Below are positions 2,680 to 39,503 of a stretch of 64,000 bases of DNA, piece after piece. The number at the start of each line of letters is the position of its first letter. Within the stretch, counting starts at the first letter, position 1. A program made the translations under genes and the position numbers. Source of the stretch: Escherichia coli (GTDB taxonomy: Bacteria > Pseudomonadota > Gammaproteobacteria > Enterobacterales > Enterobacteriaceae); NCBI RefSeq assembly GCF_001677475.2, contig NZ_CP015229.1, one strand, 5' to 3'. The notes under the pieces are model-generated. The model was not told the origin of the DNA, searched no databases, and saw only the letters and a list, made by a program, of their open reading frames with translations.

Positions 2680-2704
2680 AAAGAAAAAAGGCCGCAGAGC
2701 GGCC
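2680..2704. repeat. attL core: 25-bp direct repeat aaagaaaaaaggccgcagagcggcc (copy of the ihfA terminator stem)
   Basis: Exact 25-bp identity with 39479-39503. Confidence 0.85.
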
Positions 2705-2793
2705 ATAAACACAAACAAAAATCAATAAGTTAGATAATTATCAAAGACTTACAGACACACAAAAACACAGCAAACCACAACAAATAACATAGA

Positions 2794-2813
2794 TGTGGTC
2801 AATTTGTGGATCA
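2794..2813. promoter_or_regulatory. putative integrase arm-type binding sites (tgtggtca / tgtggatca direct repeats)
   Basis: TGTGGNCA-like repeats adjacent to att core, matching tgtggaca near attR (39423-39430). Confidence 0.4.
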
Positions 2814-3344
2814 TCATCCAACAAATTTAGCAACAAATACAGCAACCGCCGCCGTGAAAATGGTTGTGCATACTGGCACAATAATGCCACTCCAACGCCA
2901 CTTCGTATTATCATCAACCTTGTCAAACCGCCGATTCATCTCATCCATAATCTTGTCAAAGCGTTTATCCATCGCTTCGGTAAGCTCACCCTTCAGGCTG
3001 TTAATGTCTGATTTGAGCTGCTCTTTCAGGTTAGCTGTATCAGATTTAAGCTCACCTTTCAGATTCGCAATATCGCATTTAAGATCACCTTTCAGATTCG
3101 CAATGTCTGCTTTGAGCTCACCTTTAACCTCACCAACATCGGCTTTGGTTGAGAGGTTTGTAGTGCGTTCAGCAAGCGTCGCAAGGTCGTTTCTTGTTAG
3201 CGATAAATCACCTTCGAGCCGCTCAATTCGCCTTTCAAGTTTATCTGACATTCCGCCTCCACTATCACCGCCTCCCCCACCGAAAGAGTTGCCAATGTCC
3301 TCACGAATAAGGGTTATGCCATGCTCACTTTTAGCATATGCCAC
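2814..3344 (-). CDS. hypothetical tail-anchored membrane protein with Gly-rich linker and five 11-residue coiled-coil repeats (prophage cargo)
   Basis: 176-aa ORF; repeats KADIANLKGDL/KCDIANLKGEL...; C-terminal hydrophobic helix IIVPVCTTIFTAAVAVFVAKFV; start abuts stop of upstream ORF. Confidence 0.6.
   Translation of the reverse strand: MAYAKSEHGITLIREDIGNSFGGGGGDSGGGMSDKLERRIERLEGDLSLTRNDLATLAERTTNLSTKADVGEVKGELKADIANLKGDLKCDIANLKGELKSDTANLKEQLKSDINSLKGELTEAMDKRFDKIMDEMNRRFDKVDDNTKWRWSGIIVPVCTTIFTAAVAVFVAKFVG
3000..3135. repeat. tandem ~33-bp coding repeats (about 4 copies) inside the cargo membrane-protein gene
   Basis: Repeated ...agctcacctttcagattcgcaat... units visible in the sequence. 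Confidence 0.7.
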
Positions 3345-3758
3345 TCAGATTCCCTCCCAAACTATATATCCTTTGTCTCTTGCCCAACAAACAACTGTGT
3401 GGGCTGTATATGTGGATGTGAAGCCGCAATAAGAACATGACACTTCATACCGAGTATTGTAGATGTTAATGGGCTCGTTCTCCTTGTGTATGGGAGTGAC
3501 ATATTCCCAATCATTTGAATCATCATAATCATCAAGTTCAGGGTCTGTGCCGTGAACAACCGTATGTGGAATAAACAAATCTAGGCGCCCACACGAGAGA
3601 CAAGAGGTTCTGGCTCCTCTATCTTTAAGGAATTGAATAAATAATTTGGGCGAAATCTGTTGCAGAACCTGCAAATGCCCACGTTCATTATCATTAAGAG
3701 ACCTGTCTGCATATGGAAAATCATCAAATTTAAGAGGCTTCATATAAGGCATCTCCAA
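3345..3758 (-). CDS. hypothetical Cys-rich protein (two CxxC motifs, possible zinc ribbon), prophage cargo
   Basis: 137-aa ORF immediately downstream of int, overlapping the int 3' end and followed without gap by the 176-aa ORF; start may be an internal Met (about 3743). Confidence 0.55.
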   Translation of the reverse strand: MEMPYMKPLKFDDFPYADRSLNDNERGHLQVLQQISPKLFIQFLKDRGARTSCLSCGRLDLFIPHTVVHGTDPELDDYDDSNDWEYVTPIHKENEPINIYNTRYEVSCSYCGFTSTYTAHTVVCWARDKGYIVWEGI

Positions 3759-4722
3759 GGGGATTAAATCTCACCGCATCCTGCAGGTAATCCGGCGCAA
3801 GATGGGCATAAATCATCGTTGTCTGAATCTTTGCGTGCCCCAGAATTTTCTGGAGCGTCAGAATATTGCCGCCGTTCATCATGAAATGACTGGCGAAGGT
3901 GTGGCGCAGCGCATGAACAGCCTGGCCGTCAGGAACATCAGGTGCGACCGTTTTGATGACATCGCGAACCAATGGATAATCCAGCGTCGGAAACACCAGT
4001 TTCCCGCCCCGTTTTTTGATCTTTTCAAACAGGCTTTCAGAAATAGGAACGGTACGGTTTTTGCTGTTCTTCGTTTTTGAAAAAGTGATTCGACAATGAA
4101 GAACACGGCGCTGCTCCAGTGCCGCTACCTCGCCCCATCGCGCCCCGGTCGACAGAAGGATTTCGACAGCCAGCCGTTCATCGGGATTTTCAGCCAGTGC
4201 ATCCAGCAACTGAACACATTCAGACTTACTCAGATATCCCATTTCGCGCTCGTTAACCTTCATTCCTTTAAGGCCTTGAACGGGGTTATCGTTAAGAAAA
4301 TGGCCGGATGAGATGAGTGCGGTAAACATCGCGCTTAACGCCCCAATCTCTCGATTTATGGTGCTGGGCTGTATCCCCTGCTCTATCCTGGACACACGTA
4401 GCTCGGTGAGCATCGTTGTATTAAGTTTATGCACGCACGGGTCATCCATTGCCTCACTCAAGCGCAGCAATTTAAGGCGCGTGTTATGCCCTGACTTCAT
4501 TAGCTGGCCGTGGTATTTCCACCACAAGTCAATAAGCACCGACAGCGGACGGCGATCAATGGAGTTTCCTTTCCACTCATTGTTATGCTGTTGCGCCAGC
4601 ACCCACCGCTCATATAAAACTGCATCCGATTTCGTTTTAAATTTTTTGCGAATGCGTTTGCCTTTACGCCCCTCCGGGCGCATGTCAAGAAGATACCCTC
4701 CCGGAATTGATTTTATGCTCAT
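3730..4722 (-). CDS. int: tyrosine integrase, P2 Int-like
   Basis: N-terminus MSIKSIPGGYLLDMRPEGRKGKRIRKKF... resembles P2 Int; C-terminal HxxR...Y catalytic region (HALRHTFASH...MIYAHL); start chosen at Met 51 of the longer ORF. Confidence 0.9.
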   Translation of the reverse strand: MSIKSIPGGYLLDMRPEGRKGKRIRKKFKTKSDAVLYERWVLAQQHNNEWKGNSIDRRPLSVLIDLWWKYHGQLMKSGHNTRLKLLRLSEAMDDPCVHKLNTTMLTELRVSRIEQGIQPSTINREIGALSAMFTALISSGHFLNDNPVQGLKGMKVNEREMGYLSKSECVQLLDALAENPDERLAVEILLSTGARWGEVAALEQRRVLHCRITFSKTKNSKNRTVPISESLFEKIKKRGGKLVFPTLDYPLVRDVIKTVAPDVPDGQAVHALRHTFASHFMMNGGNILTLQKILGHAKIQTTMIYAHLAPDYLQDAVRFNPLGDALYEAS

Positions 4723-4771
4723 TCGTGAAACCCCAGCGTTACAAGACCACCATGCCCCCAGCGCTCCATGA

Positions 4772-5083
4772 TTAGCCGGGCTGTGTGCCAGTCTTGCGGG
4801 GTTTTTGAGAAGGCGATGTGCTTTTTGGCCCATCAGGGGAGAGAGACGGACTGATCTGCCCAGCAGCCTCATTTGTTTCGTTACTCATCAACCACGTGGT
4901 GTATTTTTTAAAGTTCGGATGCATTGTGATTTTCAGTAAAACCTCCGTCCCCACACCTCTAATACCAGTCTCATATTGCTTAACTGTACCAACCGCAATA
5001 CCTATTGAATCCGCGAACTTTGCCTGGCTAAGTCCCTCAGATTCTCGAATTGCTTTTAGCTTCTTTGATATCTCTATTGACAT
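4772..5083 (-). CDS. C: immunity repressor, P2 C-like (HTH)
   Basis: 103-aa ORF upstream of int, divergent from cox; HTH and C-terminal tail resemble P2 C. Confidence 0.8.
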   Translation of the reverse strand: MSIEISKKLKAIRESEGLSQAKFADSIGIAVGTVKQYETGIRGVGTEVLLKITMHPNFKKYTTWLMSNETNEAAGQISPSLSPDGPKSTSPSQKPRKTGTQPG

Positions 5084-5178
5084 GGTGTGCACCTGAATAC
5101 TATATTGGTTATCAGTTGAGTACCACTTGACGCCACAAAAAGCCACAAATAGCACCAGATTGAATAGGTTATCACATC
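5084..5178. promoter_or_regulatory. lysis-lysogeny switch region (divergent Pc/Pe promoters and operator repeats)
   Basis: 95-bp gap between divergent C and cox; ggttatca direct repeats and a TTGACG -35-like hexamer. Confidence 0.5.
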
Positions 5179-38621: not shown

Positions 38622-38882
38622 ATGTTCCGTTGTCCGCTTTGTGGCGCATCTGCCCGTATCCGCACCAGTCGTCCAGAAAATGATTCAAACACCGTACGGC
38701 AAAAGTATTACCAATGTAACAACCTGGAATGCGGCGTATGCTTCTCAACACTGGAAGCTTTCCATAAATTCACATCGAAACACGCCTCCGGCGCTCACTC
38801 TTCAGAAAGTATCCCGTGGCATGAACTGCCAGCTTCCCACAGAGGAAACAATCAGATGAGTTTGCCCTTACCTCAAAATTAA
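38622..38882 (+). CDS. ogr: late gene transcription activator, Ogr/Delta zinc-finger family
   Basis: MFRCPLCGASARIRTSR...YYQCNNLECGVCF resembles recalled P2 Ogr (CPLC...C..C). Confidence 0.85.
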   Translation: MFRCPLCGASARIRTSRPENDSNTVRQKYYQCNNLECGVCFSTLEAFHKFTSKHASGAHSSESIPWHELPASHRGNNQMSLPLPQN

Positions 38883-38942
38883 CAGGCAGAATTGCCGGAG
38901 TAACAAAAAAGCGATAGATTACGCGCGGGTGCCTTTCGGCTG

Positions 38943-39206
38943 ATGGTCGGAGGGAATACCCGAAGGCCAGATGTGGAAAGGCCCCGGAAAACATCTCTGT
39001 TTAACCGAGGCCCTAACCGCATTACCTTGACAAGTGAAAGGTTAGCGCCTCTCCGGAAAAGGAGCAAGTGCTATGTCGCAAAAATCGCTTACAGCCATCA
39101 CGTTCTGCGTGACGGCAATCCTCATCATCTGGATGCTACACGGTTCGCTGTGCGAAATACGGATGAGCTTCTGGGGAGCGGAGTTTGCGGCGTTCTTACA
39201 GTGTAA
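38943..39206 (+). CDS. mok-like overlapping reading frame of a hok-family locus
   Basis: 87-codon ORF overlapping the hok-like ORF in another frame and ending 7 nt before its stop. Confidence 0.45.
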   Translation: MVGGNTRRPDVERPRKTSLFNRGPNRITLTSERLAPLRKRSKCYVAKIAYSHHVLRDGNPHHLDATRFAVRNTDELLGSGVCGVLTV

Positions 39207-39213
39207 GCAGTAA
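39073..39213 (+). CDS. hok: Hok/Gef-family type I toxin (46 aa)
   Basis: MSQKSLTAITFCVTAILIIWMLHGSLCEIRMSFWGAEFAAFLQCKQ: TM helix then SLCEIR and AAFL.CK motifs as in HokA/Gef; too small for the ORF track. Confidence 0.7.
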   Translation: MSQKSLTAITFCVTAILIIWMLHGSLCEIRMSFWGAEFAAFLQCKQ

Positions 39214-39301
39214 GGAAACCGCGACGGGGGAGCAATCCCCCGTCAATCGGTTGCCAGGGTAAGGTCGATAAGGCACCCTATCTCACAGACATGAACAACA
39301 A

Positions 39302-39335
39302 ACCCGCAACGTAAAAACTGCGGGTTTTCTTTTTG
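39302..39335 (+). terminator. intrinsic terminator ending the hok-like transcript
   Basis: cccgca-loop-tgcggg hairpin followed by ttttcttttt. Confidence 0.55.
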
Positions 39336-39478
39336 GTGTCCTCACCGACTTGAAACAGTGATCAGACTATAAGACAAAGCCCACAATGTAGCTGGCTTAC
39401 TCCCCTCCCCCCCCACACTAAATGTGGACACATCGTGGAATGAAGAGATATAAAACATTATAAATCAATTGGTTATTG

Positions 39479-39503
39479 AAAGAAAAAAGGCCGCAGAGCG
39501 GCC
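39479..39503. repeat. attR core: 25-bp direct repeat (also the native ihfA terminator hairpin)
   Basis: Identical to 2680-2704; ggccgcagagcggcc stem followed by ttttt. Confidence 0.85.

Follow-up and report, generated by a model that had tools for sequence, protein, structure and literature searches.

What separates btuC from ihfA in the 64,000-nucleotide stretch of Escherichia coli DNA considered here (contig NZ_CP015229.1; the whole stretch is called the window below), and how did it come to lie there? The two host genes enclose 36.8 kb of phage DNA (element length, 36,799 bp) framed by a direct repeat, which the original prediction took for a complete P2-like prophage inserted in the ihfA terminator. 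Our analysis argues that positions 2705 to 39503 represent one temperate Peduoviridae phage genome, closest to P88, that is carried as a prophage and was integrated at the ihfA terminator by its own P2-type integrase (Int). We put the probability of this reading at about 0.93.

The borders of the element are marked by an exact 25-bp direct repeat, AAAGAAAAAAGGCCGCAGAGCGGCC, present on the same strand at positions 2680 to 2704 and 39479 to 39503. These are the only two copies in the window; no third one was found there at up to two mismatches, and shuffled sequence would be expected to give none. Neither side of the repeat can be lengthened, its left copy being preceded by TGA-A and its right copy by TTG-A, with ATAAAC and TTTTTA, respectively, after them. 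By joining the 600 bp that end with the left repeat copy to the 600 bp that follow the right one, we reconstructed a hypothetical empty site of 1200 bp. It aligned in one piece (99.9% identity) and was uninterrupted in 5120 of the 5426 complete E. coli genomes compared, and the matching genomes are annotated btuC, ihfA, pheT in this region. The two genes are thus normally adjacent, as had been proposed. A three-way alignment shows the left junction matching the empty site through the last base of the repeat and diverging from position 2705 on; at the right junction, agreement with the empty site sets in with the first repeat base. The breaks therefore coincide with the outer repeat edges, and the empty site holds a single copy of the core sequence, which bears out the claim that a 25-bp duplication bounds the insert. 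No tRNA target for integration was found.

The duplicated core has the features of a transcription terminator. On the ihfA strand it consists of GGCCGC-TCT-GCGGCC plus TTTTTTCTTT (it reads GGCCGCTCTGCGGCC TTTTTTCTTT), i.e., a GC hairpin followed by a U-tract, and it begins 17 nucleotides past the ihfA stop codon. The hairpin folds at −16.5 kcal/mol (z = −4.4), and the attL copy received a terminator score on the minus strand. Integration in the ihfA terminator, as first proposed, is thus supported by the position of the core directly downstream of ihfA as well as by its structure. The hairpin also corresponds to the paired center of the Rfam family STnc540, which in Salmonella is a ProQ-dependent small RNA (sRNA) derived from the ihfA 3′ untranslated region (UTR) (PMC6315103). 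Because the core is duplicated, both ihfA and STnc540 keep their hairpin and U-tract at attR after integration. STnc540 scored 67.4 bits in Rfam at the empty site and 42.8 bits at attR, a drop caused by phage DNA taking the place of the last ~55 nucleotides, past the terminator. Integration should leave the terminated sRNA itself as it was, and a read-through transcript from ihfA to btuC, if one exists, would be cut by the prophage. The Rfam STnc540 model (39427 to 39579, minus strand; 716 to 874 in locus L001, minus strand) extends through the ihfA terminator into the region upstream of btuC.

When the right end of the element is joined to its left end, the elements of a P2-type attP fall into order: the P arm (TGTGGACACAT/CGTGGAATGAA), an IHF site (AATCAATTGGTTA), the core, two further IHF matches, and the P′ arm (TGTGGTCAATT/TGTGGATCATC). 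The tandem motif TGTGGN6YGTGGA occurs twice in the 64 kb, at positions 2794 and 39423, which is once per arm (0.13 expected), and all three matches to the IHF consensus WATCAANNNNTTR in the window lie inside the att arms. The earlier claim of TGTGGNCA-like arm repeats at both ends stands for this tandem form, which matches the P2 Int arm sites. It does not stand for the single octamer, which is not enriched across the window (9 observed, 9.95 expected) and was discarded as an arm marker, leaving the tandem form alone as informative. The P′ arm repeats are conserved in SE11, 2D, and PS1Thumoskin9, with conservation stopping just past the second repeat, and the P arm repeats are conserved in SE11 and PS1Thumoskin9. 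Int and IHF would be expected to bind these arm and IHF motifs.

The attP layout is shared with P2, with tandem TGTGG repeats at an 11-bp spacing and an IHF site between the P arm and the core. As annotated for P2, its P arm (TGTGGTCAATG TGTGGACGTGA) is found 48 to 59 bp before the core and the P′ arm (TGTGGACACTG TGTGGACACTC) 88 bp after it; the corresponding distances in this prophage are 45 to 56 bp and 90 bp. One difference concerns the surroundings of the P′ arm, which is located within the int gene in P2, whereas two cargo genes (2814 to 3758) separate the P′ arm from int in this prophage. The integrase itself aligns end to end with P2 Int (46% identity over 323 residues), with the catalytic R...HxxR...Y motifs (ARWGE, HALRHTF, and YAH) in register, and is 99% identical to the integrases of other prophages at this site.

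In the integration model that we favor, circular phage DNA would carry an attP composed of two Int arm sites, an IHF site, the 25-bp core, two IHF-like sites, and two more Int arm sites. The P2-type integrase, positioned by the bending of DNA by host IHF, would exchange strands between the phage core and the identical ihfA terminator sequence, with the crossover presumably located within the core. A full copy of the core is found at both junctions because its sequence is identical in phage and host. The attL copy would terminate leftward phage transcription before it reaches btuC, and the region upstream of btuC is unchanged up to the core.

The gene content is that of a whole phage. All 51 gene models are open, without internal stops, and PHROG assignments cover all P2-type functions, nearly all profiles being matched over essentially their full length. 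The complete set of functions that had been predicted was recovered, as the morphogenetic, lysis, replication, and late-control genes are all open and PHROG matched. The genes follow a P2-like order, with Q-P divergent from O-N-M-L-X, then lysis, R-S, V-W-J-I-H-G, and FI-FII-E-T-U-D. The FI-U block is inverted, so that the tail operon runs opposite to that of P2; the orientation is the same in P88, SE11, and PS1Thumoskin9. As expected, E′ is found as an overlapping, shifted-frame open reading frame (ORF) at positions 33819 to 34055. Head, lysis, and most tail proteins are 97 to 100% identical to those of P88, mostly with equal lengths, the exceptions being gpE (75%), gpI (80%), and the more divergent tail-fiber proteins H and G. 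A noncoding region of ~455 bp, where cos is expected, aligns almost gap-free and with few mismatches with the region upstream of the portal gene in functional P88. A candidate for cos within it, GGTGACGGGGGAACAGCCC (14640 to 14658), is identical to P2 cos at 13 of 19 positions and was set aside as a guess only.

The nearest relatives are P88, PhiR44_2, PhiSM, P884B11, and 520873, which share 94 to 96% nucleotide identity with the prophage over 70 to 78% of its length. By an approximate, VIRIDIC-like method, intergenomic similarity was estimated at 72.1% to P88, ~69% to the SE11 prophage, and ~9% to P2. The ICTV places phages in one genus at nucleotide similarities of at least 70% over the genome and in one species at 95% or more. 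The value for P88, approximate as it is, narrowly clears the threshold for the genus Xuanwuvirus and is far under the species level. Because the structural, lysis, and replication proteins, gpE, gpI, gpH, and gpG apart, are 89 to 100% identical to those of P88 and only 26 to 61% identical to their P2 counterparts, the element is, as judged by similarity, a Xuanwuvirus-like Peduoviridae prophage with a different integration and immunity module and different cargo. The P2-type designation in the original prediction is thus right at the level of the family, by gene set, but the prophage is not close to P2, 186, or Fels-2.

The integration type is common, its site and duplication occurring in ~5% of complete E. 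coli genomes. The attR junction (phage P arm, core, and ihfA) was present in 294 of the 5426 complete genomes, including E2348/69 and O55:H7 CB9615, and these account for nearly all of the ~306 in which the site is split. The mosaic described here has no counterpart among the 5426 genomes, its best match reaching 92% coverage at 96.4% identity. In IMG/VR, the 25-mer on the P′ side was found in 43 contigs; together with loci L002 and L003 this gives 45 junctions, 44 of which are attL sites beside btuC and one of which is a secondary site. At the latter, in IMGVR_UViG_2737471845_000015 (L049, 4562 to 4586), a prophage that has this integrase and P′ arm is not beside btuC but borders a lambdoid prophage on its terminase side, the junction lying where GGCC ends. 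Unoccupied lambdoid copies (L050, E. coli E21845/O/A; H102, ETEC1738) contain a look-alike hairpin, ACATGAAAAAGGCCGCAGAGCGGCCTTTATGG, with 20 of 25 bp in common with the core. This case looks like the integration of one prophage into another, and the 20 shared base pairs would narrow the essential core to AAAAAGGCCGCAGAGCGGCC.

Is the prophage still able to excise and to make particles? We infer that it would be, and several observations weigh against this view. The prophage has a repressor of P2 C type (39% identity with P2 C), and in P2 such a repressor is not SOS inducible. The window has two matches to the LexA box (CTGTN8ACAG), one within gene A and the other in flanking host DNA, which is no more than expected by chance, and none lies in a regulatory region. 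There is thus no evidence for SOS control, since the LexA matches are at chance level and outside the control regions. The ORF at the Cox position (5179 to 5457), divergent from C, shows similarity to P2 Cox over just 25 residues and matched no Pfam family; from its location, it presumably acts as a Cox-like excision factor. The cos 19-mer of P2, by which cohesive ends could have been recognized, was not found in the window at up to three mismatches. The int-C module occurs in 0 of 50,697 phage records, so that no virion-derived genome with this integration module is known, and the exact 43-mer spanning attP, which would mark the excised junction, had 0 matches in IMG/VR. Finally, genes with open frames may still carry missense or regulatory mutations that inactivate them.

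These observations, apart from the missing cos match, would also fit a prophage that is structurally complete but cryptic, i.e., a vertically inherited island silenced by point mutations, by a noninducible repressor of the P2 C type, or by an excision factor that is defective. We regard such a state as possible but doubtful. All 51 genes are open and match those of P88, which is mitomycin inducible and forms plaques after mitomycin C treatment (PMC5285337), and the P88-like phage PhiSM is spontaneously active (PMC6456863). The int/att type is shared by 294 genomes and is mosaic in cargo, immunity, and fibers, which fits continuing horizontal spread better than decay. A homolog of the P88 gp14 “derepression protein” is also present, together with an RNA control region. 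Inducibility as such is not decidable from sequence.

Two further explanations fare much worse against an integrated single phage. That the 36.8 kb might be a composite of at least two elements in tandem at one site, such as a phage and a satellite or island, would agree with the several blocks replaced relative to P88 and SE11 and with the plasmid-like character of ParMR and hok. It is nevertheless highly improbable, as there is one tyrosine integrase only, the gene order is collinear with that of the single P88 genome, parMR and hok included, and the length lies within the range of related phages (33 to 37.6 kb); the lack of a third core copy at up to two mismatches was taken to rule it out. 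Least probable of all, to the point of being negligible, is that the repeat is a coincidental or recombination-derived copy of a common terminator hairpin, unrelated to the insertion: a near-identical hairpin (20/25 bp) does exist elsewhere in E. coli, inside lambdoid prophages, but it is itself an integration site for the same phage type, zero chance matches are expected, the junctions lie at the repeat edges, Int arm and IHF motifs are found at P2-like distances from both copies, and the empty-site comparison contradicts this explanation.

The features of the prophage and of its immediate flanks are collected in Table 1.

Table 1. Positions in the window of the att elements, prophage genes, RNA elements, and adjacent host genes (aa, amino acids; HTH, helix-turn-helix)
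Feature	Position	Strand	Evidence or remark
btuC, host left flank	1641-2621	-	326-aa ORF; annotated btuC in matching E. coli genomes
attL core	2680-2704	+	25-bp copy of ihfA terminator; hairpin GGCCGC/GCGGCC and T-run on minus strand
Two IHF-consensus matches	2720-2732, 2739-2751	+	Between core and P′ arm; predicted sites
P′ arm, tandem Int arm-type repeats TGTGGTCAATT / TGTGGATCATC	2794-2815	+	11 bp apart; 90 bp from core
Coiled-coil, C-terminally membrane-anchored protein, DUF1640/CCDC90-like	2814-3344	-	phrog_9415; Pfam CCDC90-like, 4e-5
137-aa cargo gene	3345-3758	-	phrog_4293, 8e-30
Tyrosine integrase, P2 Int type, 330 aa	3730-4722	-	phrog_1, 3e-73
Immunity repressor, P2 C type, HTH, 102 aa	4772-5080	-	phrog_147; 39% identical to P2 C over 95 aa
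Early operon: Cox-position ORF, DUF4761, DUF4754, MarR-like, P88 gp14 homolog, others	5179-8768	+	PHROG matches; mostly 78-98% identical to P88
isrK-like leader with terminator	7822-7896	+	Rfam RF01394, 66.5 bits, full length, above gathering score
C4-type antisense RNA	7932-8019	+	Rfam RF01695 (C4 of P1/P7), 83.2 bits, full length, above gathering score
P88 gp14 “derepression protein” homolog	8076-8306	+	84% identical to P88 gp14
gpA-type rolling-circle replication endonuclease	8765-11605	+	phrog_91, 2e-275; 89% identical to P88, 31% to P2 A
ParM/ParR-like partition genes	11682-12957	+	phrog_691, phrog_2515; 99% and 95% identical to P88 gp17, gp18
Variable block: ClpX-zinc-finger protein (P88 gp19 homolog), orphan 196-aa ORF, Ead/Ea22-like protein	13021-14464	+	
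Conserved noncoding region expected to hold cos; ends in hairpin GGGGCATAAATTTTTTATGCCCC	14517-14972	.	P88 alignment
Cargo ORF between cos region and portal gene	15003-15566	+	phrog_5091, 9e-67; absent from P88, present in PS1Thumoskin9
Portal gpQ and large terminase gpP	15581-18378	-	phrog_68, phrog_5751; 99%/97% identical to P88, 47%/44% to P2
Scaffold O, major capsid N, small terminase M, L, X, holin, M15 endolysin, Rz-like spanin, tail completion R, S	18533-24439	+	98-100% identical to P88, equal lengths
Baseplate V, W, J, I; tail fiber H; fiber assembly G	24436-28808	+	V, W, J 97-100% identical to P88
Invertible tail-fiber segment, inverted repeats ACCTTGGTTTGGGAGAAG / CTTCTCCCAAACCAACGT	27991-29833	.	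Repeat I1, 18 nt, 94% complementary; Gin/Cin/Pin-type crossover repeats
Alternative fiber chaperone	28780-29376	-	In invertible segment; PHROG assembly match
Alternative fiber C terminus	29373-29870	-	In invertible segment; PHROG tail fiber match
Serine DNA invertase	29898-30497	+	phrog_125, 1e-99; 87% identical to P88 invertase
Tail operon U, T (tape measure), E/E′, FII tube, FI sheath	30524-36109	-	U, T, FII, FI 97-99% identical to P88, E 75%
gpD tail protein	36270-37376	+	phrog_52, 2e-166; 99% identical to P88, 49% to P2 D
Alpha/beta-fold hydrolase, D-ogr variable locus	37503-38261	+	NCBIfam and PHROG esterase-type matches; low GC, 41-45%
Ogr/Delta-type zinc-finger late-gene activator	38622-38882	+	NF007241, phrog_603; 97% identical to P88-region DNA, 38% to P2 Ogr
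hok/mok-type type I toxin locus (hok 39073-39213)	38943-39213	+	NF007290 HokA, 2e-8; 98% identical to P88 gp52; Hok/Gef in relatives
P arm, tandem Int arm-type repeats TGTGGACACAT / CGTGGAATGAA	39423-39444	+	11 bp apart; 45-56 bp before core
IHF-consensus site AATCAATTGGTTA	39463-39475	+	Between P arm and core; position as annotated P2 IHF site
attR core	39479-39503	+	Terminator of ihfA and of ihfA 3′ UTR sRNA STnc540
ihfA, host right flank	39521-39820	-	99-aa ORF; annotated ihfA in matching genomes

The early region contains a candidate control element. The isrK-like and C4-type RNAs lie back to back, directly upstream of the ORF at positions 8076 to 8306 that encodes the gp14 homolog. From these matches, the region looks like an RNA-controlled antirepressor module of the P1 immI, P4, or Gifsy-1 type in a P2-type genome. 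Among the papers listed in a literature search, none describes such an RNA-controlled module in P88-like phages, as judged by title and abstract. Conceivably, and no more than tentatively, this module is an induction switch of the P88-like phages that resembles P1 immI or P4, and at least one cargo gene in the variable loci has a new anti-phage or lysogenic-conversion function.

Immunity also sets this prophage apart from its relative at the same site in E. coli SE11. In the repressor gene, the C-terminal third is 98% identical to that of the SE11 prophage, and the N-terminal HTH region has been replaced together with the divergent promoter/operator (4879 to 5139). Given this replacement, the two prophages probably differ in immunity specificity despite their common integrase and site.

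The variable loci are located at positions 2814 to 3758, 13353 to 14464, 15003 to 15566, and 37503 to 38261, where P2-family phages usually hold superinfection-exclusion or defense genes. In the first of them, DUF1640/CCDC90 is the name given by PGAP to the counterpart of the 2814-to-3344 protein in relatives, and that protein had no match in P88, P2, or SE11. The adjacent 3345-to-3758 protein gave no significant Pfam, NCBIfam, or PADLOC match. The orphan ORF of 196 codons in the second locus (13353 to 13943) matched nothing in Pfam, PHROG, NCBIfam, or PADLOC, and its homologs form seven clusters, from E. coli and Shigella sonnei, among 5.8 billion proteins. It is translationally coupled on both sides through ATGA and GTGA overlaps, and its homologs suggest that the true start is an internal Met codon, giving 174 residues. 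A Pfam search with four cargo ORFs returned a sole match, Ead/Ea22, for positions 13940 to 14464; the 15003-to-15566 product accordingly has no Pfam match. The alpha/beta hydrolase (37503 to 38261) is not found in P88, P2, or SE11, and its homologs, ~60 to 79% identical, come from other genera of Enterobacteriaceae, where several lie on megabase-sized contigs. A comparison of ten cargo and early proteins with PADLOC-DB 2.0 identified no defense system among them and gave weak coiled-coil matches to the DUF1640-like protein alone. Outside these loci, a plasmid-type ParM/ParR partition pair (11682 to 12957) is found on this integrating prophage.

Additional signs of exchange are found in the tail. 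The constant N-terminal part of tail fiber H (26862 to 28346) matches P2 H at 74% identity across 73% of the length, compared with 63% for P88 H, and baseplate protein I diverges from its P88 counterpart at the C terminus (80% identity over 86%). This pattern suggests that a fiber-attachment module has been exchanged between genera.

The host flanks contain btuD, btuE, and btuC on the left and ihfA and pheT on the right. The 24-kb right flank (40000 to 64000, with pheT, thrS, espL1, tcyP, katE, and others) reached at best 98.5% identity in the 5426 complete E. coli genomes, against 99.9% for the 1.2-kb empty-site construct, reflecting either a poorly represented host lineage or a divergent or recombined patch. 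On the left, 59 bp separate the btuC start codon from the attL core. A “BtuC permease” is counted among phage auxiliary metabolic genes in a 2026 survey of P2-like viruses (PMC13100340). Since btuC is a host gene 59 bp outside attL in this prophage type, the survey probably overshot the prophage boundary, and its BtuC is probably of host rather than phage origin. For prophage mining, btuC at this site should thus be treated as host DNA and not as an auxiliary metabolic gene.

Overall, the analysis provides exact borders and the attP anatomy of a common E. coli accessory element, and adds little beyond annotation otherwise. The host loses nothing at the terminator, which is retained by ihfA and the sRNA in its 3′ UTR. 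Later work could reasonably take up the uncharacterized cargo genes and the RNA-controlled derepression module.

Among known phages, P2 has the same morphogenetic gene set but a different core and chromosomal site and a tail operon that is not inverted. It encodes K where this prophage has an M15 endolysin, and it lacks the parMR genes, the invertase, hok, and the C4 and isrK RNAs. A tblastn comparison with the P2 genome gave no match outside the shared genes, and no homologs of old, tin, fun(Z), or gpB were seen. P88 (Xuanwuvirus P88; PMC5285337) is far closer: identity is 95 to 100% for most structural and lysis proteins as well as for gpD, Ogr, ParM, ParR, and hok, and 89% for gpA, and the two genomes share their gene order, the inverted FI-U tail operon, the invertase, parMR, and the conserved cos-bearing region. 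P88 nonetheless has its own integrase (43% identical) and a 14-bp attP core, GCCACCCGAAGGTG, as well as its own repressor (33% identical) and another Cox-type protein, tail-fiber tip, and cargo. The Citrobacter phage PhiSM (PMC6456863), an active temperate phage, is P88-like and shares ~95% identity over 70 to 75% of this prophage; unlike the latter, it integrates at a 17-bp site in pdxB.

The closest precedent for the integration site is the SE11 prophage PP_SE11-4, listed in Table 2 of the SE11 genome paper of Oshima et al. (2008) as a P2-like element of 35.8 kb between btuC and ihfA with a 25-nucleotide duplication (PMC2608844). Our comparison of the two loci revealed identical core and arm sequences, integrases that are 99% identical, and 35,802 bp between the cores in SE11. 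The overall gene order is the same, and 72% aligns when the prophage described here is compared with that of SE11. The blocks replaced between them are the cargo between attL and int, the repressor N terminus and operator, parts of the early region, parMR and the cargo from A to cos, the ORF before the portal gene, the fiber tip and invertible segment, and the cargo between D and ogr. The site and its duplication have thus been known since 2008, and the prophage is a new combination of known modules rather than a new kind of element.

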